A stretch of 64,000 nt of DNA from Acidobacteriota bacterium. GTDB lineage: Bacteria; Acidobacteriota; UBA890; WLXD01. Made by a program: the position numbers and the translations under genes. The notes under the pieces are model-generated. The model did not search any database. It was not told the DNA's origin and saw nothing but the letters and a program-made list of their open reading frames with translations. Location: NCBI GenBank assembly GCA_965248695.1, contig CBDFKD010000002.1:5013201-5077200 (forward strand). Reading direction: 5' to 3'. Positions 9,397 to 41,538 of this stretch are shown here, one piece after another. How positions within the stretch are numbered: position 1 is the first letter of the stretch; every line of letters starts with the position of its first letter.

Positions 9397-10467
9397 CTAG
9401 AAGATTACGGAGCCTTGGCCACGCTCGTCGATCATCTTCTGGATATGCGCTACGAGCAGCTCTCGTCGTTCCAGGAGCGCGCCCATCTGTTCCGAAACGA
9501 GGTAAGCGTCGATCGCCGCGCGGATCTGGTCGTCGGTCACCTGCTGTAGCAGCTCCCACATGCGCGGACTGCACCAGACGATCTCATCGCCGTAGCGCAG
9601 GTCCTTGTGCACCTGGAATGCGCGTGAGTGATCGATCATCCAAAGTGCCCATTCAGTGTCGATAAGGTAGTTGCCGCGGTTCCGGTCGTCGTTGAAGATC
9701 AAGCTGTCGAATATGCGCATCGCCTGGATCTGGCGCTGCCAGTCGGCCGTCACGGGTGGAGGTCCCGCCGCTCCTTGGCCGGCCTCGCCGAGCGTGCGCT
9801 CTATCCAGAGCTGCACGCTTCCATCGATGCCGTTGACCCTGCGGCACACGGTGGGCGGTACGTTGTCGAGCTCGAACAAGCGCGCCATCTGATAGGCGGC
9901 GCACTGGCCCTTGTAGCTATCGTAGTAGCGGCTGAAGCTGCGGCCGTTCATGCGGCGGGCCCGCGAGACTCTGTCGATCTCGTGAAACGCGCCGTGCGCT
10001 CGAACACCGTCACGCTCGAGTACCAGGCGCTTGATCCCAGTGACGCCGATACCGACGTTCTCCGATGACACGACAAGGGCCGTACGCAGGAACTCCGTCG
10101 CCTCGTCGTAGGTCCGAAAGGGTAGCGGCGTACCATTCGGCCCCGGCCACGGGCGGGCAATCTCTGCATCGTCCTGAGATCGATGCACCCAGGCGAGCGT
10201 GCTCGTAGTGAGCGCCGGCGATAGCACCAGAGCCACGGCGGTGGCCGCGAGCAGAACACTCCGGGCCGCCTTCACGCGGCGCGCGGTCGGATGGGTTCTC
10301 TCTTGAGCGCTGATGCCGGGCTCCACGGCGCTATCACAGAGGGGTGGGCGAAGCGCCTGAAGCCTATCGCCAGAGCCGGCGAGATCCAACGGAGACGGCA
10401 GGGTAGACACGACCGGCCTTCGCCGGGGAATACCTGCCCTACTTGTGCTTCTCGCGTCGCTCCCCAT
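9397..10467 (-). CDS. Secreted protein with a PI3/PI4-kinase (type II PI4K-like) catalytic-loop motif
   Basis: Motif IFDSLIFNDDRNRGNYLID resembles the PI4KII loop DYIIRNTDRGNDNWLI. The likely true start is the GTG near 10275, giving the signal-like VKAARSVLLAATAVALVL. The N-terminal extension is uncertain. Confidence 0.4.
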   Translation of the reverse strand: MGSDARSTSRAGIPRRRPVVSTLPSPLDLAGSGDRLQALRPPLCDSAVEPGISAQERTHPTARRVKAARSVLLAATAVALVLSPALTTSTLAWVHRSQDDAEIARPWPGPNGTPLPFRTYDEATEFLRTALVVSSENVGIGVTGIKRLVLERDGVRAHGAFHEIDRVSRARRMNGRSFSRYYDSYKGQCAAYQMARLFELDNVPPTVCRRVNGIDGSVQLWIERTLGEAGQGAAGPPPVTADWQRQIQAMRIFDSLIFNDDRNRGNYLIDTEWALWMIDHSRAFQVHKDLRYGDEIVWCSPRMWELLQQVTDDQIRAAIDAYLVSEQMGALLERRELLVAHIQKMIDERGQGSVIF

Positions 10468-18331: not shown

Positions 18332-18377
18332 GAATCGGCGAGCACTGGCAGTGTGACGATGATCGCCCGTGCGGCCT

Positions 18378-20414: not shown

Positions 20415-20425
20415 GGGCTGATCCC

Positions 20426-21031: not shown

Positions 21032-21085
21032 CTACGGGTCCGTCGGCACGAGTCGCTGCAGCTCCTCGAACCAGTTGGTGATGGC
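21032..21085 (-). repeat. E-element copy 1: conserved ~50-nt element that would encode AITNWFEELQRLVPTDP, in frame after the oxidase TGA
   Basis: Shares ttcgaggagctgcagcgactcgtgccgacggacccgtag with the copies at 30.73 kb and 34.6 kb. Confidence 0.5.
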
Positions 21086-22282: not shown

Positions 22283-22284
22283 CG

Positions 22285-23385: not shown

Positions 23386-23490
23386 GCGATCGGGCCTGTT
23401 TTGGTGCCGGGTTCCATGGCCTTATCAAGGAGGCATAGGTGACCGGCTGAGCCTAGCGATGGAGCAAGCGAGGGTCCAGGGTTCGGTTGC

Positions 23491-28304: not shown

Positions 28305-28721
28305 TCAGATCCAACGCTTGCTTTCGGTCCGCTTCGAATACCAGATCATGAACGCTGCCACTACCGACGACATTAGAGTCCCGACCCAGACCTCGATTGG
28401 AACGTCGGCTGCGCCGAGGAAGGGGAACATCTGCACAACGACGCCAAGTAGCGACGCGATGAACAGGTAGTACGCAGCCGACTTCCTGAGCAGAAGCAGG
28501 AGGCAGCCAAGCGCGCCGCCGAAGACGCCGAGCGCAAAAGCTCCGGTAGCCCATACGGGCCGGCTTTCGATGATCGCCCGGTACGACTCGGACGTGGAAG
28601 CGAGCACGTCCGCATCCATCTGCGAGAAGAAGTTCATGATGCCCAACACATTCCAGATCAGCGCCACAGCGCCGATCGCCCAGAAACTCCACGGAACACT
28701 TCCAGCCGACTTGTCGCTCAT
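28305..28721 (-). CDS. Small integral membrane protein (hypothetical)
   Basis: Four predicted TM helices. ATG at 28721 (MSDKSAGSVPW...). Confidence 0.4.
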   Translation of the reverse strand: MSDKSAGSVPWSFWAIGAVALIWNVLGIMNFFSQMDADVLASTSESYRAIIESRPVWATGAFALGVFGGALGCLLLLLRKSAAYYLFIASLLGVVVQMFPFLGAADVPIEVWVGTLMSSVVAAFMIWYSKRTESKRWI

Positions 28722-28772
28722 CGCATCCCCCGAGTCCCTGCTGTCTATCGCCCGGTAACGGGCGAGCGCCGC

Positions 28773-28804
28773 AAGCGTATCGTCAGCGCCGCCGAGTTCC
28801 AACG
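28773..28804. repeat. R-core repeat copy a (aagcgtatcgtcagcgccgccgagttccaacg)
   Basis: 30/32 identical to the copies at 30569, 33115 and 40345. Lies 50-80 bp upstream of the minus-strand gene 28305..28721. Confidence 0.6.
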
Positions 28805-28968
28805 AGTCATTGCCAACTCACAAGCGCTCACGTATTTTGCCGCAGTCGCTCGGCTAGTGCCCGGCTGCTGCCTCGATCTGGCAGCGCGATGGCGTGGCGG
28901 CAGATCGTGGGCTGGTACCTACACGAGGACATGGAGCGGCTTCGACCTGTTGGCGCCATGGCCAGCGC

Positions 28969-29619
28969 CTAATCGGATGCGATCAAGCTCATCGCGAGGC
29001 CGCCGTTCGCGTCTGCCCGCACCTGCACCTCGCGCTGGAGGATGCGGTCACCCGCAACTCCCCACGCTGTTAGCAGGTACGACTGCTTCGGGATGTCCTC
29101 GACGCGAAAGCTCCCCTGATCATTAGCGATCGCCGCATATGGGTGCGAGACCACGAGGATGAGCGCCATCATCCCCGGGTGCATGTCGCAGCTGACGCTA
29201 TAGGGGCCGTTCTGCTCGAACCGGTGCTCGATCTCGTCGTCTTGCCTCAGGTCAACGTTGATGACCACGGCCTGTGTCTGCGCCTGTGTCACGCGCACGT
29301 TGTGCTCGGTGTCGTCGCCGTTGCCGAACCGCACCTGCTGACCTCTCGCGGCGATCGCCATCCGCGGAGCGAAGGTGCGGCCGAACTGCTCGATCGCGAT
29401 CGCCGTTGCCGGTGCCTCGCGTTCCGGTGCAACCGACGCTGCCTCTGCGAGAGGCTCCAACGACACGACCGCCGGGCCGAGCCCATCGGGGAGCGTCGCG
29501 AGCAGCGTTGCCGCCGCCGCGTCGGGATCAGCCGAGCTGTCGGGCTCGGGAGCGGCCGATCGCGAGCCGCCGGGAGCACACGACACCAGCACGAGCGTGA
29601 TGACCGTCGACCCCACCAT
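28969..29619 (-). CDS. Cupredoxin (blue-copper) domain lipoprotein
   Basis: Lipobox LVSCA. Cu-ligand pattern H..C..H..M (HNV...SCDMHPGMM). Confidence 0.5.
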   Translation of the reverse strand: MVGSTVITLVLVSCAPGGSRSAAPEPDSSADPDAAAATLLATLPDGLGPAVVSLEPLAEAASVAPEREAPATAIAIEQFGRTFAPRMAIAARGQQVRFGNGDDTEHNVRVTQAQTQAVVINVDLRQDDEIEHRFEQNGPYSVSCDMHPGMMALILVVSHPYAAIANDQGSFRVEDIPKQSYLLTAWGVAGDRILQREVQVRADANGGLAMSLIASD

Positions 29620-29699
29620 CGGTCGCCGTTCCCGGGGGGCACGTCGCGAGTTCATGCCGCGAAGTCTAACGAACTGTCGGTCCTCCAGTCAGCGGGCAC

Positions 29700-29800
29700 G
29701 GCGGTGATGAAGCTACCGAGCTCCGATGCTAGTAGCCCCAATGGCGAAGATGTTGAACACCACGCAGAGTTCGTGGCGCGGCTCGCGAAGGCGGGGTAGG
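29700..29800. repeat. Repeat copy d: diverged tRNA-Glu 3'-end/trailer-like segment (tagtagccccaatggcgaagatgttgaacacc)
   Basis: Homologous to 33190-33219 and to the 3' end plus trailer of tRNA-Glu at 38487. Same orientation as both. Confidence 0.5.
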
Positions 29801-29843
29801 CGCTACTGACGTTCGCGCGACCCCAGGCGTTGCATGTTGCGGT

Positions 29844-30431
29844 TCAGCGAGCCGGTCGCAACATCGGCACGAACGGTGGTGACGTTCCCACTTGGACCTC
29901 GCCGAGCACCTCGAAGCCGTGGCGCTGATAGAGGGAGACGTTTCTCGGGTTCGTCGATTCCAGATATGCCGGCGTCTGATCATGGTCGCATTGCTGCGCG
30001 GCATACTTCATGAGCGCGCCCCCGATCCCCTTTCCCCGATACGCCGGGTCAACCCCGATGAGCGGCAGATACCAGTGCGGCTCGGCAGGGTGGTATCCAG
30101 CCAGCTGCTCGAACACTGCGTAGAGGTCGGTGCGGACCGACTCCGAGACGGTACTCTCAATGACCTCGCCCAGAGCTTCCTCATCAGGGTGCACATCGGG
30201 CGGCAGCCAGAGGGCGGTGCCGGCGCATTCCCCGGTGCAGTGGGCACTACCGTGGGCGAAGGAGCTGCCGGCAAACGCACGCGCGAACCGAGGCATGTTC
30301 GTCAGATACTGATGCGGATCCGGATAGCACCATCTCGCCACCGGATCGGCGACGAACGCCAGTACGATCGCATCGATTGCCGGACTCTCGTCGGCCTGAG
30401 TCGTCGTTCTGATCTCAGGGATCTCCATGGC
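29844..30431 (-). CDS. GNAT family N-acetyltransferase
   Basis: Acetyl-CoA-binding motif RGKGIGGALM. Conserved YLESTNPRNVSLYQRHGF tail. Confidence 0.7.
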   Translation of the reverse strand, partial: AMEIPEIRTTTQADESPAIDAIVLAFVADPVARWCYPDPHQYLTNMPRFARAFAGSSFAHGSAHCTGECAGTALWLPPDVHPDEEALGEVIESTVSESVRTDLYAVFEQLAGYHPAEPHWYLPLIGVDPAYRGKGIGGALMKYAAQQCDHDQTPAYLESTNPRNVSLYQRHGFEVLGEVQVGTSPPFVPMLRPAR

Positions 30432-30560
30432 TTCCTCCGGAGGCTGATCTGGTTCCCGTGTCCGCGATCGCGCGGATCGCGCTCCAGCTTGTCTAGTGGT
30501 CTCTCGCACTGACTGGCGCGAACAACGCAGCCGTGAAAGACCTACGAAGCAGGACGATGG

Positions 30561-30795
30561 GCGCCCAGAAGCGTATCGTCAGCGCCGGCGAGATCCAACG
30601 CCAGGTGTAGAGAGGCTATCGGGCGGCAGTTGAATTGAGGTAGTAGGCCCAATCACCCCGAGTTGGAACCGGATCTAGGAAGAGCTCCGAGGGCTGGATC
30701 GGCTACTTGCCTGATTCGGAGGGCTGAGCGCGTTACGGGGCCGTTGGCACGAGCCGCTTCACCTCCTCGAACCGGGTGGTGACGAGCGTCACGCA
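30561..30795. repeat. Composite repeat copy b: R-core, tRNA-3'-like segment, spacer and E-element copy 2
   Basis: R-core at 30569-30600. tagtaggcccaatcaccccgagttggaacc at 30641-30670. The 110-nt stretch 30680-30795 is about 75% identical to 34536-34640 and includes the FEEVKRLVPTAP-encoding core. Confidence 0.55.
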
Positions 30796-30899
30796 ATGGC
30801 TACTGGCCCGCATCTGCGCGCGGCTTTCGCACTCCTTCAGTTCCTAATACTCGAAGGACTTGCCGAGGAGTCGCGGGCCTGACTTCTACTGTCCAGGCA

Positions 30900-31010
30900 T
30901 AGACGGGCCGAGCCACACGAACCGGTACTCCCACGAGCAGCGAGAGCAGCTACGTATCTCCGACGACGGTGTGCTGGGTCCGCTTGAACCGATTCGCTTG
31001 TCTTACCGTA
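30900..31010 (-). pseudogene. Duplicated 5' fragment of the 7101..7943 methyltransferase gene, with an in-frame stop
   Basis: ~90 nt near-identical to 7860-7945. Would encode RQANRFKRTQHTVVGDT*, versus MRQANRFKRTNHAVVGDTHLL in the intact gene. It supplies the last codons of the oxidase paralogue. Confidence 0.6.
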
Positions 31011-33003
31011 TCTCGCTCGTACTGGAGGCTCTTCGCCGGGCGCGGCTTCGAACAAGCAGCTGCTCCCGCACCGCTCGATGTGCCTCGTCGATAGCCGAGT
31101 CGGTGTGTGTCGAGGCAGCGGCATCGGAGTTGGCGATGGAAATCCGACCGAATCGCCGGCTCCCGACTACGCACGGCCGATCGTCGGGTGTGAACAGCGC
31201 CCACTCGATGGGATCGTCCAGGGTGTTGTAGCTGTATGCATAGCCGTGCGGCCAGCGATTCACCGTGATCGCTTCGATGTCGCGAGCCGGGTCGAAGCCC
31301 CCACCCTCCAGCATTCGACCGAGCTGGTCGCGGATGTTGCGCTCGAATGTCTCGAAGCTCGTGGCCAACAGATTCTCTCGCCCGATGCGGTGCTGCTGCT
31401 TCTTCGGGTGTCCAGGAGCGCAGGGCGTTCTGGACATGTGCAGAATCATCGGGTCCTCGGGTGACCTGGAGGGTTGGTACTCACCGAACTGCACGGAGCG
31501 GCCAAGGCTGACCCCGCTGTGGTACATCCCCGGCGCGGTCACCCGTGAGACTCCGAGGTTCTTGAAGGCCTTCCAATCTCGGGTAAGGACGTTGGTGGAG
31601 ACGAGCGGCATCTTGACACCATACTTGAGCGCCACCTTCTGCTCGTCGGACATCTCTGGGCACAGGTGTGGGATGACCCCGTTCCAGCAGCCCATCACAC
31701 AGTGACGCGCCCGTACCTTCTCGGCCTTGCCAGCGCGTAGATAGGTAATCTCGACTTCGCGGGCCACATCGGGATCGCCCAGGTGCCGGACGGAGACGCC
31801 CATGCTGTTGAGGCGAATCCTGGCGTCGGAACCCTCGCGGTCTAGGCGGTCGTACCTGAGTCGCGACGTCATCGAGTCGTCCAGCGAGGTGCCGGGAAGC
31901 GCGTCGGGAATCATGGCGCGAACCAGCAACCGTGCCAGCGTCGCGTTGCCGTCTGGAAAGTGGATGTCCGGTCGATCGTCCCACTCGTTCTCGCGACCGT
32001 GTTGCCCGCCGCCGATGTGGGCAAGGGGGCCCACCAGGGGAAGGGTCTCGAGGTTCATCCCCTGGAAGCCGGGATAGCCCTGGGCCCATGCGTAGAGTGC
32101 CGGATGGGCGTCGATGCCAACGCAGAAGCTACCCTTCGGGCGGTCATCGAAGAACGGGATCACATCCGAGTGAACCTTGGCCAGATCGAGCAGAAAGTCC
32201 CGGTAGCTGATGCGTGCCAGGCGCTCCTTCTTGTCCGCATCCGACAGTCCGGGCATGGTGTCCGGGTTCGCATCGTCGTCGTAGAGCCGCGCGATGTCCC
32301 TCTGCGCCTCCGGAGACATCGGGGTCTTTGCGAGCCACTCGGCCCATGCACCCGATTGCCCGCCGCGTCCCATCACCAGCCGATCCTCGCCGAACACCTC
32401 CTTGCTGAAGAACGTGGCGTTGCCCAGGCCCAGCGATCCGTAGAACCTCCTACCCGCGGCGCTGGTGGCATAGGCGCTGTCGATGTCGATGCCGACCGCA
32501 GCGAGAAGCGTCCTGCAGACGGCGCTGTAGTGGCCCACAGACTCGAGGTACGACGTACCGCCGGGCAGCATCAGCGTACGGCCTCGATAGGTCATCTCGT
32601 TGCGCTTGGCATGGCCGCCAAAGTCGTCGTGATTGTCGAGGACAAGGACACGCGCACCGCGGCCAGCCGAGGTCAGGAAGAAATAGGCTGCCGAAAGCCC
32701 GCTCAGCCCCCCACCGACCACCACGCAATCGTAGCGCTCACCGGTATCGGCGGCATCGGTCCAAGAGTTGCCGTCGCGAAGCGCATGGCCGGCCTCGAAG
32801 GAACCGGGGTGGCTGCCGCGCATTCCGGTCAGGGCCGGGGGGTAGTAGTCCTGCGCGAGTGGCGCATAGGGCTTGCCCTCGCGTGCCGACGACCAGCCCG
32901 GTGCGATGAGCGCCCCCCCGATCGCAACCCCCACGCCGTTAACGAAGTCGCGCCGGGTGATATCACGGTGCATCCCTAGATCACGATCCTCACTTGTGGG
33001 CAT
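31003..33003 (-). CDS. FAD-dependent oxidoreductase, Tat-exported (paralogue 2)
   Basis: MPTSEDRDLGMHRDITRRDFV Tat signal and a GGGLSG FAD motif. Paralogue of 12429..14357. Its C-terminus is altered by fusion with the methyltransferase fragment. Confidence 0.7.
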   Translation of the reverse strand: MPTSEDRDLGMHRDITRRDFVNGVGVAIGGALIAPGWSSAREGKPYAPLAQDYYPPALTGMRGSHPGSFEAGHALRDGNSWTDAADTGERYDCVVVGGGLSGLSAAYFFLTSAGRGARVLVLDNHDDFGGHAKRNEMTYRGRTLMLPGGTSYLESVGHYSAVCRTLLAAVGIDIDSAYATSAAGRRFYGSLGLGNATFFSKEVFGEDRLVMGRGGQSGAWAEWLAKTPMSPEAQRDIARLYDDDANPDTMPGLSDADKKERLARISYRDFLLDLAKVHSDVIPFFDDRPKGSFCVGIDAHPALYAWAQGYPGFQGMNLETLPLVGPLAHIGGGQHGRENEWDDRPDIHFPDGNATLARLLVRAMIPDALPGTSLDDSMTSRLRYDRLDREGSDARIRLNSMGVSVRHLGDPDVAREVEITYLRAGKAEKVRARHCVMGCWNGVIPHLCPEMSDEQKVALKYGVKMPLVSTNVLTRDWKAFKNLGVSRVTAPGMYHSGVSLGRSVQFGEYQPSRSPEDPMILHMSRTPCAPGHPKKQQHRIGRENLLATSFETFERNIRDQLGRMLEGGGFDPARDIEAITVNRWPHGYAYSYNTLDDPIEWALFTPDDRPCVVGSRRFGRISIANSDAAASTHTDSAIDEAHRAVREQLLVRSRARRRASSTSEIR

Positions 33004-33114
33004 AGCCTAGCCGCTCCAGGTTCTCAAACGCGGGAAGCGTGCGAAACGTCGACTCGTTACCAGGCTCGACCGAAGTGCAAATCGCATCCAGACTCTGACG
33101 TCGGCGAGCAAGGG

Positions 33115-33219
33115 AAGCGTATCGTCAGAGCTTGCGAGATCCAACGGAGGGAGTAGGAAGAGGCTGCGGGCAACGGCGAAACGGAGGTGGTAGCCCCAAC
33201 GGCCAGGATGTTGAACCAC
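33115..33219. repeat. Repeat copy c: R-core plus a diverged copy of the tRNA-Glu 3' end and trailer
   Basis: aagcgtatcgtcagagcttgcgagatccaacg followed by ...caacggcgaaacggaggtggtagccccaacggccaggatgttgaacc. Compare the tRNA region ...caacggcgaaatagagggagtagccccaacgggatttgaacc. Confidence 0.6.
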
Positions 33220-33408
33220 ATATCCAGTACGTAGCGCGCCCCACCCGCTTGTCGAGGATCTCGGTCAGGATGTCGCGATAATCGATCGTGATCTCTAGAT
33301 CCCTGCACCGTCCGCATGAAAGGCTGTACCGGCCAGCGAGGCGCGTCATCTCGACCCGTCGCGGCCGTCAAGCGGAGCGGCCTGCCTGTCCATTGTAGGC
33401 TGTGTCTG

Positions 33409-33837
33409 ATGCAGATCCACCGGGAGACGCTGGAGCGCGAGACCGCGCCCGATACCGACATTCATGACCTCACCGACGAGGTGCGGGCCGTCATCGAGCG
33501 CTCGCGTGTGAAGCAAGGCCAAGTGCTCGTCTTCACGCCAGGCTCGACCGCCGGCGTCACCGTCATCGAGTACGAGAGCGGCGCCGTGGCCGATCTAAGG
33601 CGGGCGATCGACCGGCTGGCGCCCACCGGCGAGCCCTACGATCACGACGCCCGCTGGGGCGACGGCAACGGTTACTCGCACGTGCGCGCCGCGCTGCTCG
33701 GCCCCTCGATCACCGCGCCGATCGTCGACGGTAGGGCGGTTCTAGGCACCTGGCAGCAGATAATTCTGTGCGATTTTGACAACCGGCCGCGAACCCGGAA
33801 AATCGTCGTGCAGGTGATGGGCGTCGTGGTTCCGTAG
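33409..33837 (+). CDS. YjbQ/UPF0047 family protein (secondary thiamine-phosphate synthase-like)
   Basis: Conserved HTSAG-like, GNGYSHVRAALLGPS and LGTWQQI motifs. Confidence 0.6.
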   Translation: MQIHRETLERETAPDTDIHDLTDEVRAVIERSRVKQGQVLVFTPGSTAGVTVIEYESGAVADLRRAIDRLAPTGEPYDHDARWGDGNGYSHVRAALLGPSITAPIVDGRAVLGTWQQIILCDFDNRPRTRKIVVQVMGVVVP

Positions 33838-34045
33838 CCTTGCCGGCCGCTTAGTCAACCCCCTCTCTCACCACCCGCCCGCAAAGCTAAAGCTAACGAA
33901 CGAGCTGGGCGGGCGGAGGTAGTCGATTCAGCAGGGTAGGTGTAATTGCGCGGCAGTCCGTTGTTCGGGATGACGCCGGATGGCATCACCTAAGCCGCTG
34001 TGTTCCATGCCTTGTCATTGGTTGCCCGGGTAATCTCCAGGAATT

Positions 34046-34441
34046 TCAGCTTTCGGCATCGTCCGGGAGAGCGTATCCACCCGATTCGTCGTTAACTTCG
34101 TCGCCAACCAGCGGCGGGTTGAAAATAGCAATGGCGCGCACTTCGGTATCCAGGTTGTAGCGGTGACGCTCATGTTTGTCGAAAGCATAGAAGACTCCCG
34201 GCTCCAGTCTATAAACGTCCCCGGTCTCGATGATCTCGACAGTGCCGGTTCCCTCGAGAACGTAAACGGCCTCGATGTGGTTCTTGTGCTCGACCTCGAG
34301 GTCGATGCCTGCCGAGCCGACGGCCTCGGTTACGGTGAAGCCCAAGTTGTCGGACGCGACCGCCAGGCGGGCGCTCACGAAACCATCCGCTTCGACGAAA
34401 TTCGGCGTCCCCTTCAATTGTGCAAATGTACGAAGAATCAT
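34046..34441 (-). CDS. ectC: L-ectoine synthase
   Basis: 131 aa. MILRTFAQLKGT N-terminus, HKNHIEAVYVLEGTG cupin core and FNPPLVGDE. No ectA or ectB nearby. Confidence 0.75.
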   Translation of the reverse strand: MILRTFAQLKGTPNFVEADGFVSARLAVASDNLGFTVTEAVGSAGIDLEVEHKNHIEAVYVLEGTGTVEIIETGDVYRLEPGVFYAFDKHERHRYNLDTEVRAIAIFNPPLVGDEVNDESGGYALPDDAES

Positions 34442-34535
34442 CCTGAGGTTCCCTTTGCTGGTTTGATATTCGTAGCTGGCACTATCGCTGGCGAAGTCTT
34501 CCGGCAGCACGTTGATCGAGACATCACGATCGAGA

Positions 34536-34640
34536 GTGGAACTCCGGGGGCTGCATCGGCTGCTTGCATGATTCGGTGAGGCCGGCTGAGCGCGCTACTT
34601 GTCTGTCGGCGCGAGCCGGTTCAGCTCGTCGAAGAAGTTA
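34536..34640. repeat. E-element copy 3 plus extension, abutting the stop codon of the NHL gene
   Basis: Would encode DWFSRTNFFDELNRLAPTDK* in the +1 frame relative to the NHL stop TAA. The extension is homologous to 30680-30730. Confidence 0.5.
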
Positions 34641-35765
34641 GTTCGTGAGAACCAATCCTCGGCCGACGAGCTTTATGGGATCGGCTCCGGGCTTCGGAAC
34701 GAACTTGCTCAACCATCCGCCGTCCCAGCTGGCGACATAGACGTTGCCGTCCTGGTCCACGTCCATCTGGTGTGGACGCCCGAGGCCACCAGGAAAGCCG
34801 CCCCGCGTCCCGCCGAACGCACCCCAGTGGTACTGGAGGACCCCGTCCAGGTTGTACCTGAGGATCCGGTTCACTGCCGCAGAAATCACCCAGACCGCGT
34901 CATTCTCGTCGATGAAGATTCCGACGGGATCGGTGACGTCGGGCCACTCCTCGATGAACTCGCCGTCTTCCGTAAAGACTTGGATGCGGTTATTGGTCCG
35001 GTCGCCGACGTAGATGCGGTGATCGCGGTCCACGGCAACGCCGTGGATGAGGTCGAACTGTCCGGGGCCGCTCCCGACCGAGCCGAACTCCGACACGAGC
35101 TCGCCGGCCGCGTTGTACCTGGCGATACGACCGTTCTGGTAACCGTCCCCGAGCAGAAAGTCGCCGTCCGGGAGGAAGGTCATCACCGAGGCCTGGCCGA
35201 AGTCGAGCGGTCCCGGGTTCTTGTTCGCCCGTGCCTTCTCCCCGCTCTGGCGCGGGTTGGGGTCGAGGAGCCGCATCACGATCTGTTTGCCGTCGTTGGT
35301 GAACTTGATGACCTGCTCGTGGATGTCCCTGGTTCCTCCGCCGCGCTCGACGAGCCAGATGTGGCGCTCCGGGTCGTAGGGGCTGATGTAGACCTGGTGG
35401 GGAGTGTTGAGCATGGTGTCCCACTGGGTCCAACGCTCGACGATGTCCCCGTTCCCATCGACGACCACCATGTAGTTGGAGCTGTTCGGCCGCTCTTCGC
35501 CTTCGGCGTTCCGGTCGCCCCACACTGCAACGATAATCCGGTTCGGATTGTCAGCCGCCACACCAGAGACCTGACCCCAGGTCCACTCCTCGTCGTGGTC
35601 TGGCGCCGGCTTCCACCAGCCTGCCACCGGATCGTATCCTCCGGTACGGTCGTCCCCGCCCTTGATGACCGCCTCCGGTGCGGCCTGGTCCTCACCAGCG
35701 CAGGCTGGGAGTAGCGCCAGCCCAACGGCGAGGAAGAGGGCCACGTCCATGCGCTTTAGTTTCAT
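34638..35765 (-). CDS. NHL-repeat lipoprotein (paralogue of 22285..23385)
   Basis: MKLKRMDVALFLAVGLALLPACAGE signal and lipobox. VGDRTNNRIQVF NHL repeats. Confidence 0.65.
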   Translation of the reverse strand: MKLKRMDVALFLAVGLALLPACAGEDQAAPEAVIKGGDDRTGGYDPVAGWWKPAPDHDEEWTWGQVSGVAADNPNRIIVAVWGDRNAEGEERPNSSNYMVVVDGNGDIVERWTQWDTMLNTPHQVYISPYDPERHIWLVERGGGTRDIHEQVIKFTNDGKQIVMRLLDPNPRQSGEKARANKNPGPLDFGQASVMTFLPDGDFLLGDGYQNGRIARYNAAGELVSEFGSVGSGPGQFDLIHGVAVDRDHRIYVGDRTNNRIQVFTEDGEFIEEWPDVTDPVGIFIDENDAVWVISAAVNRILRYNLDGVLQYHWGAFGGTRGGFPGGLGRPHQMDVDQDGNVYVASWDGGWLSKFVPKPGADPIKLVGRGLVLTN

Positions 35766-35809
35766 CGTCAAATCCACTCCCGAAAAGGCTTTCATAGACG
35801 CCGTGGAGT

Positions 35810-36790
35810 TGACCCGCTTCCGTGGACACCTTATGGCTAACGCCAAAGGAGTCTGCGATGCGAAGAACACGACCGCCTTATCCGCCGGAGTTTCGCCGGC
35901 AGATCGTCGAGCTAGCGCGGGCAGGACGCAGCGTGCAGGAGCTCGCCGAGGAGTTCGAGCCCTCGTACTGGACGATCCGTACATGGATCAAGCAGGCGGA
36001 TCGAGATGACGGGCTTAGCGCGGCTGGCCTGAGTAGCCAGGACAAGGAAGAACTACGGCGGCTACGCCGGGAAAACCGCCAGTTGAAGACGGAGCGGGAG
36101 ATCCTGGCAAAAGCCGCGGCCTGGTTCGCTCGGGAGACCGGCGCAGTACCCAAGAAGTCTTCGGGTTCGTGAGAGCTCACCAGGCCTGCTATCCGATCGC
36201 CACGATGTGCCGAGTGCTGGAGGTCTCCACCAGCGGCTACTACGCGTGGCGACAACGCCCTAGCAGTATGCGAGCACGACAGGATGCACAGCTGCGTGAG
36301 CAGATCGAGACGATCCATCGACTTAGCCGTGCGACCTATGGCGTGCCTCGGGTACACGCGGAACTGGCCGCCGACGGCGTTCGGGTGGGGCGCAAACGCG
36401 TGGCACGGCTGATGAGCCAGGCGGGGCTGGAGGGTGTCAGCCGCCGCCGTCGGCTGCGCACGACGCGCCGCGGTACTGACGCGCAGCCGGTGCCCGATCT
36501 GGTGAAACGTGACTTCGCGGTCGGTGCACCCGATCGCCTGTGGGTTGCCGACATCACGTACGTCTCTACGTGGTCGGGGTTCTTGTACCTGGCGGTGGTG
36601 ATGGATGCCTTCAGCCGGCGGGTGGTGGGCTGGTCGATGGCCAACCACCTGCGTACCGAACTGGTGCTTGAGGCGCTCAACATGGCGATCTGGCAACGCC
36701 GACCTGAGAGCGTGATCCACCACTCTGATCAGGGCACGCAATACACCTCGATCGCCTTCGGCCACCGCTGCAAGCAGCTCGGTGTACGTC
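35810..36790 (+). mobile_element. IS3-family insertion sequence, 3'-truncated (IS#1)
   Basis: OrfA (HTH, leucine zipper) and OrfB (DDE integrase core, 209 aa, lacking its C-terminus) in a -1 overlap. The candidate IRL TGACCCGCTTCC begins near 35810. The right end is replaced by IS#2. Confidence 0.55.
35858..36172 (+). CDS. IS3-family transposase OrfA
   Basis: MRRTRPPYPPEFRRQIVELARAG...ENRQLKTEREILAKAAAWFA. Confidence 0.8.
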   Translation: MRRTRPPYPPEFRRQIVELARAGRSVQELAEEFEPSYWTIRTWIKQADRDDGLSAAGLSSQDKEELRRLRRENRQLKTEREILAKAAAWFARETGAVPKKSSGS

Positions 36791-36798
36791 TGACCTGA
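36169..36798 (+). CDS. IS3-family transposase OrfB (truncated)
   Basis: DDE domain motifs LWVADITYV and HSDQGTQYTS. It ends early where IS#2 is inserted. Confidence 0.75.
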   Translation: MRAHQACYPIATMCRVLEVSTSGYYAWRQRPSSMRARQDAQLREQIETIHRLSRATYGVPRVHAELAADGVRVGRKRVARLMSQAGLEGVSRRRRLRTTRRGTDAQPVPDLVKRDFAVGAPDRLWVADITYVSTWSGFLYLAVVMDAFSRRVVGWSMANHLRTELVLEALNMAIWQRRPESVIHHSDQGTQYTSIAFGHRCKQLGVRLT

Positions 36799-36856
36799 CC
36801 CCCGAAAACGGATCCGGATGTAATCTCACGATCTGGGTCAAGAACGGGAGGTCAGA

Positions 36857-37135
36857 ATGCCGAGTAAGAGGCACAGCGCCGAGCAGATCGTACGCAAGCT
36901 CCGGGAGGCTGAGGTGGAGCTGGCTCGAGGGGCGACGGTCAAGGATGCCTGCCGCAAGCTAGCAATCACCGAGCACACCTACTACCGGTGGCGGCGAGAG
37001 TACGGCGGACTGAAGCTCAACCAGGCCAGAAAGCTCAAGCAACTGGAGAAGGAGAATGCCCGGCTCAAGAGGCTGGTGGCGGAAAAGGAACTCGACCTGT
37101 CGATCCTGAAGGAAGTGGCGGAGGGAAACTTCTGA
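36857..37135 (+). CDS. IS3-family transposase OrfA
   Basis: MPSKRHSAEQIVRKLREAEV...ENARLKRLVAEKELDLSILKE. Confidence 0.8.
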   Translation: MPSKRHSAEQIVRKLREAEVELARGATVKDACRKLAITEHTYYRWRREYGGLKLNQARKLKQLEKENARLKRLVAEKELDLSILKEVAEGNF

Positions 37136-38016
37136 GCCCAGCTCGGCGGCGAGAGGCGGTGGCACATGTACGGGGGCGGCTGGGCGTCTCGGAGAGGCGG
37201 GCGTGTCGGGTACTGAAACAACCACGCACGACACACCGGTACGTGCCAAGAGAGCCGCAACAGGAGCAGATTTTGACGGAGCGGATCGTGGATTTAGCCC
37301 GACAGTACGGGCGCTACGGATATCGGAGGGTGACAGCGTTGCTGCGCATGGAGGGCTGGTCCGTGAACCACAAACGAGTGCAGCGTATCTGGCGGCGCGA
37401 AGGGCTGAAAGTACCGAGAAAACAGCCCAAACGAGCACGGCTGTGGCTGAGCGATGGCTCCTGCATCCGGCTGCGCCCACAGCACCGGGATCATGTCTGG
37501 GCGTATGACTTCCTGCACCACCGGACGCACGACGGTCGGGCTATGAGGCTGCTGACGATCGTCGATGAGTACACACGAGAAAGCCTGGCGATCCATGTAG
37601 CACGGAAGCTCAACTCTGAGGACGTGCTGGAGCAGCTCGGGAGGTTGTTCGTACACCGGGGCATACCTGAGCACATCCGGTCGGATAACGGACCAGAGTT
37701 CACCGCCGAGGCGGTTCGCGACTGGCTGGGCCGGTTGGGCGTGGGGACGCTGTTCATCGAGCCGGGCTCGCCGTGGGAGAACGGTTACGTGGAGAGCTTC
37801 AACGGCAAGCTACGCGACGAGCTGCTGGATGGAGAGATCTTCTACACGCTCAAGGAGGCAAAGGTTCTGATCGAGAGATGGCGTCAGCACTACAACCGCA
37901 TGCGACCGCACAGCTCGCTGAGCTATCGGCCGCCCGCACCCGAAGCGACGTTGTTGAAGCCGGCTGCGCTCCGCTTCGCCGGCCTCAACAACCTCTTGTC
38001 AGCACCGAGTTACTGA
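37132..38016 (+). CDS. IS3-family transposase OrfB (via -1 frameshift from OrfA)
   Basis: DDE motifs VWAYDFLH, IRSDNGPEFT and PWENGYVESFNGKLRDE. This frame is open from 36988. Confidence 0.75.
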   Translation: MSPARRREAVAHVRGRLGVSERRACRVLKQPRTTHRYVPREPQQEQILTERIVDLARQYGRYGYRRVTALLRMEGWSVNHKRVQRIWRREGLKVPRKQPKRARLWLSDGSCIRLRPQHRDHVWAYDFLHHRTHDGRAMRLLTIVDEYTRESLAIHVARKLNSEDVLEQLGRLFVHRGIPEHIRSDNGPEFTAEAVRDWLGRLGVGTLFIEPGSPWENGYVESFNGKLRDELLDGEIFYTLKEAKVLIERWRQHYNRMRPHSSLSYRPPAPEATLLKPAALRFAGLNNLLSAPSY

Positions 38017-38400
38017 GATAAGACATGGTACTAACCGCGGGGTCAGGTCAAGGGCGGGACGGGAGACGCGGACACGCGCACACTTCGGGAGCGACAGGGC
38101 TAGCCGGGACATTCGTTCTCTCTTGGCTTTGTGCCAGGGCTAGCCCACATCCTTGGCGGACGACCGAGGTCACCTGGTTAGCAGCTCTAGGGGCGCTTGA
38201 CCAAGAAAGCTTCGGTGCGGCGGATAGCCGCAAAGTAGCCGATCCTCAGAACACCCGTCGGAGGGCGCATAGTGTAGTTGATTGCCGGGCGGGGGATGAG
38301 CGAGCGAAGGGCGGTTTCGGCATACCCAGTGGGGTCGAGGATCTTGTCGCAGCTGTGTCGAGTTCCGGGTTCGATGGCACTGCCGGGCGGAGGTGGAAAT

Positions 38401-38486
38401 GCGCCCGAGATCCATCGCCAGCGGAGGCGAGATCCAGCCGGTGGGGCAGGGGATGCACCGGAGGACAACGGCGAAATAGAGGGAGT
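38401..38486. repeat. Repeat copy f: partial R-core plus trailer immediately 3' of tRNA-Glu
   Basis: gcgcccgagatcca / ggcgagatccagccgg, then the trailer caacggcgaaatagagggag that is shared with copy c. Confidence 0.5.
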
Positions 38487-38560
38487 AGCCCCAACGGGAT
38501 TTGAACCCGTGCCGCCGGCTTGAAAGGCCGGTGTCCTAACCTGGCTAGACGATGGGGCCA
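38487..38560 (-). tRNA. tRNA-Glu (anticodon UUC)
   Basis: Reverse complement GGCCCCATCGTCTAGCCAGGTTAGGACACCGGCCTTTCAAGCCGGCGGCACGGGTTCAAATCCCGTTGGGGCTA. Cloverleaf with anticodon loop CTTTCAA. CCA not encoded. Confidence 0.8.
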
Positions 38561-38606
38561 CCCTGGAAAACCGCTGTGGCGAGGCCGGGTCACTAGGTAG
38601 AAGTGT

Positions 38607-38679
38607 GGGCCGTCAGGGGATCGAACCCTGGACACCCGGCTTAAAAGGCCGGTGCTCTGCCAACTGAGCTAACGGCCCG
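38607..38679 (-). tRNA. tRNA-Lys (anticodon UUU)
   Basis: Reverse complement GGGCCGTTAGCTCAGTTGGCAGAGCACCGGCCTTTTAAGCCGGGTGTCCAGGGTTCGATCCCCTGACGGCCCA. Anticodon loop CTTTTAA. Confidence 0.85.
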
Positions 38680-38717
38680 GACGGAGTATAAACCGGGTCG
38701 TAGGGTGGCATGCTCGT

Positions 38718-40313
38718 CTATTGCACGATCACGATTGCGTCGTTCGACGCAATCGCATCGCCGCAGCTGTTGCGGGCGATGATCCGAACGTAGTACGTGC
38801 CCGGACCGACCCCCGTCGCCATGAAACTGGTGTTCGGGCTGCTGAGATCTCGACCTGGAATGAGGTCGGATGCGCCGTCTCCTGACCCCGCCTGCAAGAT
38901 GTAGGTGGTGGGCGCGTTGGCACCGCCCTGGCTGCTCCATGTCAGGGTCACGGTTGTTCCGCTGACGCCGGAGGAAACTGTCACCGCGCTCGGCGGGCCG
39001 GTACACGATCCTCCTGCTGGCCCTCCGACATCCAATTCCACCTCATTCGATGGGCCGCTCGTGTCCACGAGATTGGTGGCATGAACACGTAGGAAGTAGG
39101 TTCGACTCCCGACGTTGTGGGTGACCAAGCTCGTCACATTGCCGACTCTCGAGATGACGATGTCACTGCCACCGGACGACGATCCGACGTGCAAAATGTA
39201 CTCGGTTGGAGCGCCACCCGAGCCCGGTGGGCTCCATGAGATCGTTACGGTCGAGCCGTCTGCGGACGCCGTCAGATTCGACGGAGCGCCTGGAGCGCTT
39301 TCTTCACCGCCACCGGTACCGTTCCCCGATCGGTAGTTCGCCACGATCCCGGCAGTCTCCTCGATGACGCGAGCGTTGTTAGAGATGCCTCCAACGCCTA
39401 TCGGGCCCGCCTCCGGCCCGCTGTAGGAAATGTTCGGATTCGAGAAGACAAGGAGCTCCAAGCACACCCGACGGAACCGGTCCACGCACTGGTCCACATA
39501 CGACATGACCGTTTGCCACGACTTGTTTGCCGACGGCCCGATGTGGACATGCCCGTGTCCGTCGCTGGAGTAGGCGCTGCCCTGCACGTACGGGTCGTGC
39601 CCCGGTCCCCATGTTGTGGCCGATCTCGTGAGCGAACGTATAGTTGGACACGCAAAAGAATGACGTCACGCTGAACGCCCATTCCGGGAACCCTGGCGAG
39701 ACCCAAGCGACCCCGCAGAAGTCGATTCCGTAGGTGAGCATGGCGACGAGGTCTGCCGCGTACCGTTCCCTGAGGGCGCCGACCGACTCCGACTTCCTGA
39801 GCCATGACAAGTCGTTGCTCATGGAGGACGATTCCGTGTAGGCGATCTCCTGCGTGTTGGCCAGGGTCAACCGAGCTCCTGAGCCACTGTTGCTGAAGGC
39901 GCCGTTCGTCTGCGCAACCCCCAGAAACGCCAGATTCTGAATGGCTGTCGTCCCACCGGCGCGCTGGCGCGCCTGCGGCGTGTACAGCACGAGGATCCTG
40001 ATGTCGCCGGCGCCATCCTTGGTCGTGGGGGTCGAGGTCTTTGTCTCCGGCTTCGCTGTGTCGCTCGGACGAGCGGGGAGGTGCTCCGGCGGAAGCAGCG
40101 CGCGGTCAATCTCCAGAACCCGATGGGTGCCGGCCCGTCCGGGTCTGACGCTGAAGGCCCGTTGACCGTCGCTGATCTCTGCTGTCAGCACTCCTTGGTG
40201 AACGACGAGGATGGCCTCCTGGTACGGTCGCCCTGGCTGGCAGAAACGAGCAGCAGCGCGAGCGTGATGGTCGGCACCGTTGTAGGGGACCGAAGTAGAT
40301 TGCCCAGGTCCAT
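38718..40313 (-). pseudogene. Secreted zinc metalloprotease (HEIGHNMG zincin, reprolysin/M12B-like) with two C-terminal FN3-like domains, broken by two frameshifts
   Basis: Signal peptide MDLGNLLRSPTTVPTITLALLLVSASQG in one frame. The catalytic domain with TFAHEIGHNMG is in a second frame, with the shift near 40226. FN3 repeats are in a third frame, with the shift near 39600 (atggggAccgggg). RBS GGGAG precedes the ATG at 40313. Confidence 0.6.
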
Positions 40314-40344
40314 GACGCTCCCTGAGGCCAGGTAGTTGACAACT

Positions 40345-40377
40345 GAAGCGTAGCGCCGGAGCAGTTCAGATCCAACG
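40345..40377. repeat. R-core repeat copy e
   Basis: gaagcgtagcgccggagcagttcagatccaacgg, lying ~35 bp upstream of the metalloprotease start. Confidence 0.5.
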
Positions 40378-40502
40378 GCAGGAGCGAGGCGAGAGCGCAG
40401 TGCGGACTGCGGAAGATGCGCCGGTGAACGTCGGCGTTTGCAACCAGTGTTCTACCCTGGGCGCCCGAACAGTGGATCAGGTCGCGGCGAAAGGAGACAT
40501 TC

Positions 40503-41538
40503 ATGGAGTATCGAGCCCTCGGCAGGACTGGCTTGCAGGTTTCCTGTATCGCCTTCGGAACCGACAACTTCCTCGACCCGACGCCGGAGGACGAGTCTCG
40601 GCGCATGCTCGACCGGGCGCTTGATGCGGGGGTGAACTTTCTGGACACGGGCGACGTGTACGCCGGCGGCGAAGCCGAGAAGATGATCGGCCGTGCGCTC
40701 AAGGACAGCGGCCCGGCGGCATGAGGTATTGCTGTCGACGAAGGTCGACCACTGCATGAGCATTCCGGGCCAATCGCTCGACGAGCACAGCCCGACGTCT
40801 GAGCCGAACCGACACGGTCTCTCGAAGTACAACGTCATCCGCGCCTGCGAGAACTCGCTGCGCAGCTTCCAGACCGACACCATCGACGTTTACTACGCTC
40901 ATAGGCACTCTCCCGAGATCCCACTCGACGAGACTCTTTCGGCGCTCGACTACCTGGTGCGCTCCGGCAAGGTCCGCTATGTCGGCACCTCGACGCATCC
41001 GGCGTGGGTGCTAATGGAGACGCTGGCGATCGCCAAGGAGCTCGGATACCAGCGAATCGTCACCGAGCAGCCGCCCTACAACCTGCTGGATCGGCGCATC
41101 GAGAACGAATTGATCCCGATGGCGCAGAAGCACGGCATCGGACTGATTACCTGGGCGCCGATGGGAATGGGAGTGCTGGCTGGCCGCTACGACGACGCCG
41201 ACGATCTACCTCAGGACTCTCGCGCCGTCTACAGGGGCGGCTTCTACCGCGACCGCGTCACGCCACGCGGCGTGGAGGTGGGGAAGCGCTTCGGTGCTAT
41301 CGCACGCGATCTGGGTTTGACATCGGCACAGCTGGCGCTTCTGTGGACCAAGGACCAGCTCGGGGTGACTGCGCCGCTGATGGGACCGCGAACGATGCAG
41401 CATCTCGAGGACGCCCTGCCGGTGGCCGACATGACGCTCGACGACGAGACGCGCGCCGCCTGTGACGCCCTCGTGCCTCCGGGCTCCGCCGTGGCGGACT
41501 TCCACAACACGTCGGGTTGGATGCGGATGTCGGTCTGA
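40503..41538 (+). CDS. Aldo/keto reductase interrupted by a frameshift near 40720
   Basis: N-terminus MEYRALGRTGLQVSCIAFGT...GRALKDSG, then a frame change, then RRHEVLLSTKV...YYAHRHSP...GTSTHPAW...ITWAPMGMGVLAGRY. Confidence 0.65.

Follow-up and report, generated by a model that had tools for sequence, protein, structure and literature searches.

A tRNA-Glu locus of an Acidobacteriota bacterium in which an upstream module and tRNA 3'-end copies probably form two overlapping repeat systems

Results

The window, by which we mean the whole 64-kb stretch of DNA analyzed, carries on its minus strand an intact tRNA-Glu(UUC) gene (38485..38559; ARAGORN, Rfam 66.9 bits and alignment) with a tRNA-Lys(UUU) gene directly 5' of it (38605..38678, minus strand; same tRNA searches). 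Also on the minus strand are genes for a FAD/NAD-binding oxidase, named 'spermidine dehydrogenase' in some sources (31003..33003; Pfam and homologues), a GNAT acetyltransferase with a likely start at 30431 (29844..30509; Pfam and homologue search), and a cupredoxin-like secreted protein (28969..29655), whose Pfam match is weak and under the Pfam cut-off. The region's other genes are UPF0047/yjbQ, ectC, an NHL protein gene, two IS3-family elements, and a frameshifted reprolysin/FN3 gene, the degraded metalloprotease of an earlier note on this DNA, so that apart from the weak cupredoxin the cargo listed there was recovered. The oxidase, described there as duplicated, does have a paralogue (46% identical), but this lies outside the region, at 12429-14435. 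Oxidase homologues in unrelated contexts share 85–88% nucleotide identity, and the GNAT gene is strain-specific, its nearest homologue outside the source genome being 82% identical.

The earlier note saw in this region six combined copies of one signature, a repeated R-core joined to the 3' end of tRNA-Glu. The repeats are real and non-random, yet made up of two elements, the R-core and tRNA-Glu 3'-end copies, rather than of one signature. Of the six copies, the three at 30.6, 33.1, and 38.4 kb alone join the two, at a constant spacing of 45–47 nt from R-core to tRNA-like part; the 28.78 and 40.35 kb copies consist of R only, and the 29.73 kb copy of the tRNA-like part only.

Read on the minus strand, the R-core is CGTTGGATCTCG-N-GCNCTGRCGATASGCTT, with two conserved blocks, TTGGAT and TA(C/G)GCT, separated by 17 nt. 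A leader with an inverted repeat (GGCGCTC...GAGCGCC) lies 3' of it, followed in many copies by the start ATGGAACCCGGCACC (MEPGT...). The window holds seven copies, all in a single orientation, as had been proposed, and two of them (10.36 and 23.45 kb) lie beyond the range first described. Those at 28773-28804, 30569-30600, and 33115-33146 have at most three mismatches each, where shuffled sequence is expected to give 0 matches, while those at 38408-38439 and 40346-40377 are degenerate. In the 40.35 and 23.45 kb copies the spacer has diverged, yet both blocks and their spacing are kept. The copy at 28773..28804 (minus strand) is 49 nt 5' of a small membrane protein gene (28305-28724), and that at 10360..10391 (minus strand) is 34 nt 5' of a secreted-protein gene starting VEPG.... 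The copy at 40346..40377 (minus strand; R search and sequence reading) leads into the frameshifted reprolysin/FN3 gene (38718-40313), to which a kinase-like start (ATG at 40313) is fused; the copy is located upstream of the tRNAs, not downstream as an attR copy was said to be. At 23400..23480 (minus strand; nhmmer E 0.057 and sequence), a degenerate R-core (23449-23480) and a kinase 5' stub, ATGGAACCCGGCACCAAA (23400-23417), are placed upstream of an NHL paralogue.

Related Acidobacteriota MAG loci contain about one R-core per 9 kb, and nhmmer returned 35 R matches in the 298 kb of DNA searched. A genome-collection scan gave nine R loci across three Acidobacteriota MAGs, one near tRNAs and eight away from any tRNA, a distribution at odds with the R-core being an att signature. 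It is positioned 30–140 nt 5' of genes in its own orientation, most often those of Ser/Thr kinases (STK); MEPGTKLGPYEI...GAGGMGEVY kinase starts follow many copies, and in loci with database-called genes a co-oriented called gene lies directly downstream of seven of eight. The R-core is the conserved core of a promoter/leader-like module common across this Acidobacteriota lineage, an upstream module and no part of an att signature. The module belongs to the lineage's expanded STK gene family and also fronts unrelated genes. R would act as a promoter for the neighboring gene at lower window coordinates. Its hexamers match the sigma-70 consensus, that of E. coli, at 6 of 12 positions, and were not flagged in a generic scan. 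Because the conservation of the spacer and flanks exceeds the need of a plain promoter, R may in addition serve as an operator or leader element.

The tRNA-Glu 3'-end copies at 33.19, 30.64, and 29.73 kb have a non-tRNA arm in common and look like integration scars. Their junctions, here c33, c30, and c29, share with loci L010 and L012 a pseudo-T-arm of 27 nt (the real one has 22 nt). All parts of the three junctions read on the minus strand. Junction c33 (33115..33238; self-BLAST, anchored and three-way alignments) comprises the arm, whose pseudo-T-arm exceeds the real one by 5 nt (33203-33238), the core (33190-33202), a native 'CACCTCC' trailer with CCA encoded (33147-33189), and the R-core (33115-33146). 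Junction c30 (30569..30678; R search, self-BLAST and alignment) has a short arm that includes a pseudo-T-arm (30656-30678), a core that has diverged, ATTGGGCCTAC (30643-30655), a trailer (30601-30642), and an R-core without mismatches (30569-30600). In c29 (29732..29795; self-BLAST, anchored alignment and comparison with L010), the arm with pseudo-T-arm (29745-29795) and core, CCATTGGGGCTAC (29732-29744), are followed by neither a recognizable trailer nor R.

Self-BLAST of the region aligned 30568-30652 with 33114-33199 (76% over 87 nt, E 6e-9), 33168-33202 with the tRNA 3' end and trailer at 38463-38497 (86%, E 4e-4), and 29732-29758 with 33190-33216 (89%, E 0.02). The earlier note had allowed that the tRNA similarity might prove to be chance. 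An anchored alignment of 33190-33260 with the 29.7 kb copy scored 40, above the highest null score of 27 in 2880 trials, but the tRNA-like part of c30 by itself scored 15 against a null mean of 14.6, which is not significant; the support for c30 comes from its trailer, R and register.

In the closest relative found, at about 93% nucleotide identity (MAG CBDAMQ01 contig_22, locus L016), the 3' half of the tRNA is directly joined to the 33.1-kb trailer, R and the FAD oxidase gene, which is 96% identical to the window copy and the gene directly 3' of the tRNA. The intervening 5.3 kb is absent, and 33203-38484 is therefore an indel. Its limits are exactly a 13-nt core, CCGTTGGGGCTAC, which on the attL side is the last 13 nt of tRNA-Glu (38485-38497, minus strand; alignment). 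This unit, E1 (33203..38484, minus strand; blastn of L016 against the window, three-way alignment and Pfam), contains yjbQ (33409-33837, plus strand), ectC (34046-34441), a kinase 3' stub, X34 (34539-34633), the NHL protein gene (34638-35765), and a truncated (35822-36798) and a complete (36857-38016) IS3-family element. Next to the tRNA is an element-derived left arm (38361..38484, minus strand throughout; trailer comparison, nhmmer R match E 4.5e-12, and a stub visible in the sequence) made up of a 'TCCCTCT' trailer (38440-38484), a decayed R-core (38408-38439), and an STK 5' stub whose ATG has turned to ATC (38361-38375). The tRNA-proximal trailer (TCCCTCT...) is of the type that follows the real tRNA-Glu in metagenome loci L010 and L011, unlike L016, whereas the distal one (CACCTCC...) is the native type of L016. 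On this comparison the proximal trailer appears to be of a foreign type and the 33.19-kb copy to be the displaced original 3' end of tRNA-Glu. The E1 site has an attL/attR pattern with an empty-site variant, L016 being the empty tRNA-Glu site for which the earlier note had proposed to look; integration at the tRNA 3' end is thereby supported for 33.19 kb but not for the R-core, and the 28.78 and 40.35 kb copies are not integration scars. The empty site is seen in two assemblies, L016 and L017, of a single relative lineage, in which the tRNA is a Lys/Glu chimera. GC content barely deviates from the surroundings.

The same arm occurs at tRNA-Glu in another organism. In L010, an unrelated metagenome contig, a real tRNA-Glu is followed by 2.27 kb with one amidohydrolase gene and then by the same arm and core, with an encoded CCA. 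Its distal junction is 78% identical to c29 over 64 nt (E 2.7e-8), and past the T-loop part its arm agrees with c33 in 16 of 22 positions. As the earlier note had said of this region, no integrase is present; the 64-kb window, L010 and L012 yielded neither an integrase nor a site-specific recombinase of another kind.

Junctions c30 and c29 lie past the oxidase gene and a stub of gene G, both of which are native flank in L016. Two stubs occupy 30682..31002 (minus strand; blastn and translations): the 5' stub of G, the next native gene, with an in-frame stop (30936-31002, minus strand; matched by L016 12010-12077 at window 31002-30936), and X30, the stub of a kinase 3' end, ...RFEEVKRLVPTAP* (30682-30792, minus strand; L016 387-433 matches window 30792-30746). 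The array is not a simple accretion, and with two scars beyond the native flank, serial integration at tRNA-Glu is insufficient without added rearrangement. The att-type arm shared by the 30.64 and 29.73 kb scars speaks for the serial integration originally proposed and their place distal to the native-flank oxidase against it; such an origin for them is uncertain.

Discussion

The observed repeat homologies, empty site, arm shared with another organism, and distribution of R are probably the outcome of two unrelated, overlapping repeat systems, an R upstream module and recombination scars of tRNA-Glu. The model first put forward, in which all six copies, R-core included, are att sites and serial site-specific tRNA-Glu integrations built the whole 28.8–40.4 kb mosaic of single-gene units, would account for the common orientation, the constant spacing in three copies, and the small accessory-gene units between copies. 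It is nevertheless very improbable, being contradicted for the R-core by the distribution of R, frequent in relatives, mostly off tRNAs and before kinase genes; R also recurs at 10.36 and 23.45 kb, the 40.35-kb copy is upstream of the tRNAs, a tRNA part is missing from the 28.78-kb copy, and the oxidase between copies is native flank in L016. Still harder to credit is that the tRNA-like similarity is chance or coding, the 29.7 and 33.2 kb pieces being C-terminal fragments of a membrane protein (...VFNIFAIGAT and ...WFNILAVGAT). Each can be read in one frame as a hydrophobic peptide, but the alignment score exceeds the null maximum, the homology is continuous with the tRNA 3' end and trailer, the orthologous position in the relative is the tRNA itself, the reading frames around the pieces do not look like protein, and no bias to third codon positions is seen in the differences.

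A more serious alternative, though an unlikely one, dispenses with site-specific recombination and invokes IS activity as well as homologous and illegitimate recombination among dispersed repeats (R modules, conserved 5' and 3' ends of kinase genes, and tRNA genes); on this reading the tRNA-like pieces would be copies of one old kinase-tRNA-kinase spacer spread by these rearrangements. Kinase 5' stubs after R and 3' stubs (X) do frame unrelated cargo off tRNAs: from 23.45 to 21.03 kb, the NHL paralogue and a DAO gene lie between kinase stubs, the second of which, X21 (AITNWFEELQRLVPTDP*; 21032..21082, minus strand; comparison with relative), separates the DAO gene from a DUF1989 gene, and in the relative an intact 903-aa kinase ends at the X21 position, immediately before the same DUF1989 gene. 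A kinase 3' stub X also precedes the arm in c30 and L010, rearrangement is heavy between genomes 93% identical, the DNA carries an IS256-type transposase besides the two IS3-family elements, and an integrase is absent. Against this, the E1 breakpoints lie within a core of 13 identical nucleotides, a length insufficient for exchange of the RecA type, and the trailer type changes right after the core; the flanking repeats are only 67–86% identical; and the same arm, core and trailer bracket a different single-gene insertion at the real tRNA-Glu of L010. We infer that the mechanism at tRNA-Glu was site-specific rather than homologous.

Several known systems resemble parts of this arrangement. In the Dehalococcoides ssrA islands (PMC3146451), as here, an intact RNA gene (there that of tmRNA) stands at one end with diverged 3'-end direct repeats downstream, several small islands lie in tandem, and a conserved motif just 5' of each repeat, which cannot be aligned to the RNA gene, marks the element side; some islands have no integration module and are regarded as either fixed or mobile through accretion. 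Sixteen of those islands have serine recombinases (DsiB; PMC3146451), whereas here no recombinase was seen, the target is tRNA-Glu, the units measure 0.9–5.3 kb, and a promoter-like module accompanies the repeat. Like CIMEs and the accretion of integrative elements (PMC5704250), att-type repeats bound segments at a tRNA 3' end that encode neither integration nor transfer functions, but mobilization by a related helper element is only putative here, with no intact helper in view, and the repeats are diverged (core 10–13 of 13 positions). Prochlorococcus tycheposons (bioRxiv 10.1101/2020.12.28.424599), in another phylum, likewise form tRNA-proximal islands by repeated integration and tandem accretion, with scattered partial tRNAs and adaptive-gene cargo, but their defining tyrosine recombinase and replication modules are absent here. 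R recalls putative mobile promoters (PMC3488235, PMC3575422) in its length of at least 50 nt, its identity of about 80% or more, its place before non-homologous genes, and its spread over one genome and related genomes; unlike them, it is far more numerous than typical families and tied to one paralogous kinase family, and several copies bring a start codon and the first 4–12 kinase codons into the new gene. The likeness to integron cassette arrays, with one-gene units in a row, in one orientation and with a repeated site between them, is superficial: intI, attI and a common Pc promoter are lacking, the repeats are not imperfect palindromes as attC is, and each unit has its own promoter-like module.

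If two systems overlap here, R would owe its place beside the scars solely to the R-type promoters that the inner end of the element and the native neighbor downstream of the tRNA each carry. The 30.64 and 29.73 kb junctions, with the same element-type arm, would be older scars of the same element family, moved to their present place by later rearrangement, and the elements, which here lack a recombinase of their own, would be decayed or reliant on one encoded elsewhere. The insertion of small pieces of DNA at the 3' ends of tRNA genes is a known route of bacterial gene gain. We suggest that at least one segment, E1, recombined with the tRNA-Glu gene within the 13-nt core, so that the gene would have received a new 3' end and trailer from the incoming DNA, and its original 3' end, CCA, trailer, R promoter and the oxidase gene would have been displaced by 5.3 kb.

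The repeats beside tRNA-Glu

Two tRNA genes on the minus strand, tRNA-Glu(UUC) at 38485-38559 and tRNA-Lys at 38605-38678, are called by both ARAGORN and Rfam; the tRNA-Glu gene is intact and forms one boundary of E1, a 5.3-kb indel at 33203-38484. The R-core (R), a repeat with TTGGAT and TA(C/G)GCT blocks that reads CGTTGGATCTCGCCGGCGCTGACGATACGCTT on the minus strand, occurs with at most three mismatches at 28773, 30569 and 33115 and, outside the range of the earlier note, at 10360; chance would give 0 matches. Two further copies, at 38408 and 40346, are degenerate, and a seventh, at 23449, is weak. Self-BLAST pairs 30568-30652 with 33114-33199 (E 6e-9), the 35 nt at 33168-33202 with the tRNA-Glu 3' end and its trailer, the sequence that follows it (86% identity, E 4e-4), and 29732-29758 with 33190-33216 (E 0.02), while 33190-33260, in an anchored alignment with the 29.7-kb copy, reaches a score of 40 where the null never exceeds 27. 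Taken together, the R counts, the E-values and the alignment score show that the repeats are real. The earlier note had described every repeat between 28.8 and 40.4 kb as an R-core combined with a diverged tRNA-Glu end; the repeats do exceed chance, but the two parts occur together only at 30.6, 33.1 and 38.4 kb. Its reading of the gene content agrees largely with the Pfam assignments.

A probable 5.3-kb unit and its empty site

A homologue search with the FAD oxidase of the window (31003-33003) led to a close relative, MAG CBDAMQ01 contig_22 (L016, with a second assembly, L017), at ~93% DNA identity. In both assemblies the 3' half of the tRNA is joined directly to the trailer, R and oxidase found at the 33.1-kb copy of the window, and the 5.3 kb at 33203-38484 are absent, with breakpoints at the repeat in the case of E1 only. 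The empty-site variant that had been named beforehand as a check was thus found for E1, in a single relative lineage. The tRNA of that lineage is a Lys/Glu chimera, one gene (L016 9742-9817, L017 7764-7839) with a tRNA-Lys 5' half and a tRNA-Glu 3' half in place of the two genes of the window, and ARAGORN calls it Gly-tcc. The two tRNAs have CACCGGCCTTT in common in the anticodon arm, and the chimera is either a real deletion or a low-coverage assembly error.

The sequence at 33190-33202 is identical to the last 13 nt of tRNA-Glu (13/13), which we call the core. In a three-way alignment, the distal trailer of the window (CACCTCC..., with encoded CCA) is the native trailer of the relative, whereas the tRNA-proximal trailer (TCCCTCT...) is of the type that follows the real tRNA-Glu in the metagenome loci L010 and L011, and the change from one type to the other falls directly after the core CCGTTGGGGCTAC. 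On its left, the distal core of the window adjoins sequence other than the tRNA: on this element side stand an arm, CGCGCTACGTACT..ATG.TG, and a pseudo-T-arm that exceeds the real one by 5 nt. Read from the sequence, this layout is the one expected for attL and attR, and E1 is probably a discrete unit that was gained or lost by recombination inside the 13-nt core. The loss of the encoded CCA of tRNA-Glu, where the element end replaced the native end, is directly visible. The GC content over 28-40 kb is 0.59-0.66, compared with 0.64 for the window, with only a small dip, at ectC.

A recurring arm at other junctions

The arm, the lengthened pseudo-T-arm and the core make up a junction motif, its arm/core part written as TTCAAMATYNNNGSYCRTTGGGGCTAC, that recurs elsewhere. 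The 27-nt form of the pseudo-T-arm is also present at the minus-strand junctions at 29.73 and 30.64 kb. In one comparison locus (L012) the arm is followed by trailer, R and a kinase stub, and in L010 it lies 2.27 kb downstream of the real tRNA-Glu, with one amidohydrolase gene between them and a distal core followed by an encoded CCA. The L010 arm matches the 29.7-kb copy at 78% identity over 64 nt (E 2.7e-8). Two further candidates, a degenerate junction (34442-34538) after the kinase 3' stub X34 and an arm 5' of the 28.78-kb R, were set aside as too weakly similar to claim.

We tentatively read the 30.6- and 29.7-kb junctions as scars of the same element family, at somewhat less than even confidence. 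In the relative, the oxidase belongs to the native flank and gene G comes next. In the window, what comes after the oxidase is a 67-nt stub of G with a stop codon, then the kinase 3' stub X30 and then the 30.64-kb junction, so the two scars cannot be taken simply for earlier accretion layers at this tRNA. A rearrangement has probably brought them to their present place. The remainder of G is 18.7 kb away, at 12204; an attempt to reduce this difference from the relative (L016) to a single event failed.

R as a predicted promoter-plus-leader module

All copies of R in the window sit 5' of a minus-strand start, at 33-49 nt for those at 10.36, 23.45, 28.78, 38.4 and 40.35 kb, 60-138 nt for the GNAT gene and 112 nt for the oxidase. 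The spacing of TTGGAT and TA(C/G)GCT is constant at 17 nt, also in the 40.35- and 23.45-kb copies with their diverged spacers. The strict R pattern, searched for in a genome collection with a single genome for each species, turned up at 9 loci, which belong to three Acidobacteriota MAGs; just one of the nine carries tRNAs. The metagenome scan used a tRNA-plus-R pattern. A profile built from the R copies gave 35 matches across 298 kb of compared DNA and none in the loci where other lineages have this oxidase. Conservation continues 3' of R (CAGGCGCTCACC...GGGAGCGCCATGGAACCCGGCACC), corresponding to the start of Ser/Thr kinases with the N-terminus MEPGTKLGPYEI, and at loci with database gene calls a co-oriented gene lies directly 3' of R in seven of eight copies. 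From its distribution, the kinase starts and the gene co-orientation, R is therefore predicted to be a promoter-plus-leader module that belongs to an expanded family of kinases and serves other genes as well. It is a conserved stretch of at least 50 nt, 5' of and co-oriented with non-homologous genes, as putative mobile promoters are, and our reading agrees with the published notion of propagated promoters (PMC3488235).

There are three caveats to this reading: TTGGAT-17-TA(C/G)GCT agrees with the classical -35/-10 consensus at only 6 of 12 positions, with TTG and TAnnnT kept; a generic promoter scan did not flag these hexamers; and the alignment of copies shows a spacer conserved to an unusual degree. 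By inspection, a sigma-54 promoter was set aside since GG and GC stand one base too near to each other, and an ECF-type promoter since the spacing is too short. R is not a MITE or REP-type repeat: the alignments are without terminal inverted repeats, and the position and orientation of R relative to start codons are fixed. Nor is it a known RNA family, as only the two tRNAs in the window reach the Rfam gathering score. A scan of a viral collection for R and for the arm motif gave no match to either.

The R leader (e.g., window 10327-10359) contains a conserved inverted repeat, GGCGCTC...GAGCGCC, which overlaps the GGGAG ribosome-binding region before the ATG; on inspection of the R alignment it shows G-U changes only and no double compensatory changes, which leaves the leader hairpin putative. 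The codons with which the kinases open, MEPGTKLG or VEPG, are also fused in frame to the signal peptides of unrelated proteins, namely a periplasmic binding protein (L018 3904-3962, minus strand, gene 2531-3910) and a secreted protein (window 10312-10326). These fusions indicate that the R module can bring its own start codon into other genes.

Kinase stubs frame the cargo

On the 5' side of the cargo stand R and 4-12 kinase codons, and on the 3' side the last 13-20 codons of a kinase (...NWFDELKRLVPTDP*), with unrelated genes between. This framing is seen from 38.4 to 34.5 kb and from 33.1 to 30.7 kb. In both L010 and the 30.64-kb junction, a kinase 3' stub stands right before the arm, and the recurrence of such stubs suggests a kinase gene beside a tRNA-Glu site as the ancestor of the element family. 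The NHL gene of the window ends differently from its orthologues (..GRGLVLTN* at 34633-34640, versus ..GQPLLLE*) and leads, with a change of frame, into the tail of the kinase (FFDELNRLAPTDK*), which places the NHL/kinase 3'-end junction within the last few NHL codons.

Part of the patchwork may instead have arisen by recombination alone, without site-specific integration, and we keep this explanation alive since kinase stubs also frame cargo away from any tRNA, from 23.45 to 21.03 kb. There, at 21032-23480 on the minus strand and directly upstream of a DUF1989 gene, lie R, a kinase 5' stub, an NHL paralogue, a DAO gene and a kinase 3' stub (X21). In the relative (L002/L016), an intact 903-aa Ser/Thr kinase ends right before the same DUF1989 gene, so that in the window, from this comparison, two other genes seem to have taken the place of the kinase interior. 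Near this locus, an S9 peptidase block (18322-20415) differs in position between the window and the relative.

As to site-specific integration, no integrase had been noticed at 28.8-40.4 kb, and Pfam bears this out: no site-specific recombinase was found in the ORFs judged to be real genes (26-43 kb plus most of the rest), nor in the ORFs of L010 and L012, where, as in the window, rve-type and Mutator-type transposases were the only recombination-type genes found. The units may be decayed, or may depend on a recombinase encoded elsewhere; an integrase-bearing helper element was looked for in the DNA compared and none was found. On balance we lean towards the combined account, in which E1 is a unit and the 30.6- and 29.7-kb junctions are scars of the same family. 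Tandem islands and scars that adjoin tRNA or tmRNA genes at their 3' end are a kind already known. The ssrA islands of Dehalococcoides were likewise marked by a conserved motif, foreign to the RNA gene, that flanks every repeat on its element side (PMC3146451), as the arm does here. Cis-mobilizable elements (CIMEs) are flanked by att sites and lack recombination and transfer genes (PMC5704250), as do E1 and the L010 unit; E2 and E3 fit this description less cleanly. The locus is not an integron, since no tyrosine recombinase was found and the junctions gave no attC-like palindromes in an inverted-repeat search.

A more far-reaching and rather unlikely reading is a cassette-like system of gene capture at tRNA-Glu in this lineage, with integrase-less units of 0.9-5.3 kb and one to three genes each that would be moved by a recombinase encoded elsewhere. 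The circular junction would run from kinase 3' end through arm, 13-nt core, trailer and R promoter to kinase 5' end; each unit would be a former single kinase-gene cassette whose interior was exchanged for other cargo, and would supply its own promoter and start codon. If true, the kinase frame would also permit cargo exchange at many kinase loci genome-wide.

Neighboring loci

The FAD oxidase shows 85-88% DNA identity in quite different neighborhoods (L018-L031), some without R, which suggests frequent horizontal transfer; its orthologues in six other contexts among these loci have no tRNA-Glu junctions. A 46%-identical paralogue lies at 12429-14435, where the relative has the tRNA and oxidase. 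A homologue search with the GNAT protein returned none close enough for context.

In another MAG (L005 4100-4410), several tRNA fragments, including an inverted tRNA-Thr 3' half (~4104-4143) and the 3' ends of two other tRNAs, lie beside tRNA-Lys, tRNA-Glu and tRNA-Thr, suggesting a recombination hot spot. On the other side of the window tRNAs, an aldo/keto reductase gene (40503-41538) is frameshifted (N-terminus 40503-40724, remainder 40693-41538) and an intact Mutator/IS256-type transposase gene lies nearby at 42241-43446, so the zone of decay reaches beyond the tRNAs. The threonine dehydratase (PALP plus C-terminal regulatory domain) at 24949-26564 is called as two ORFs with a 4-nt overlap, possibly a frameshift or a split gene.

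A scan of the viral collection for the tRNA-Glu 3' end matched one contig (L015, IMG/VR UViG_3300037258_000245), whose tRNA-Glu(ttc) is identical to that of the window over its last 23 nt. The match lies inside an array of 17 tRNA genes (1-7154) and has no connection to this case.

Significance

What is new here is the lineage, the junction motif, the small size of the integrase-less units and their coincidence with a very abundant promoter module. The regulatory repeat can now be told apart from the recombination scars, which the sequence-only reading had merged, and an insertion/empty-site pair at tRNA-Glu is documented in a poorly studied, mostly uncultured lineage of Acidobacteriota. The junction motif can be used as a search key for the recombinase and for further units, and the abundance of R makes it a practical handle on predicted promoters in these organisms. 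That R brings the first codons of a kinase before genes of other kinds is a hint as to how genes gained recently come to be expressed there.
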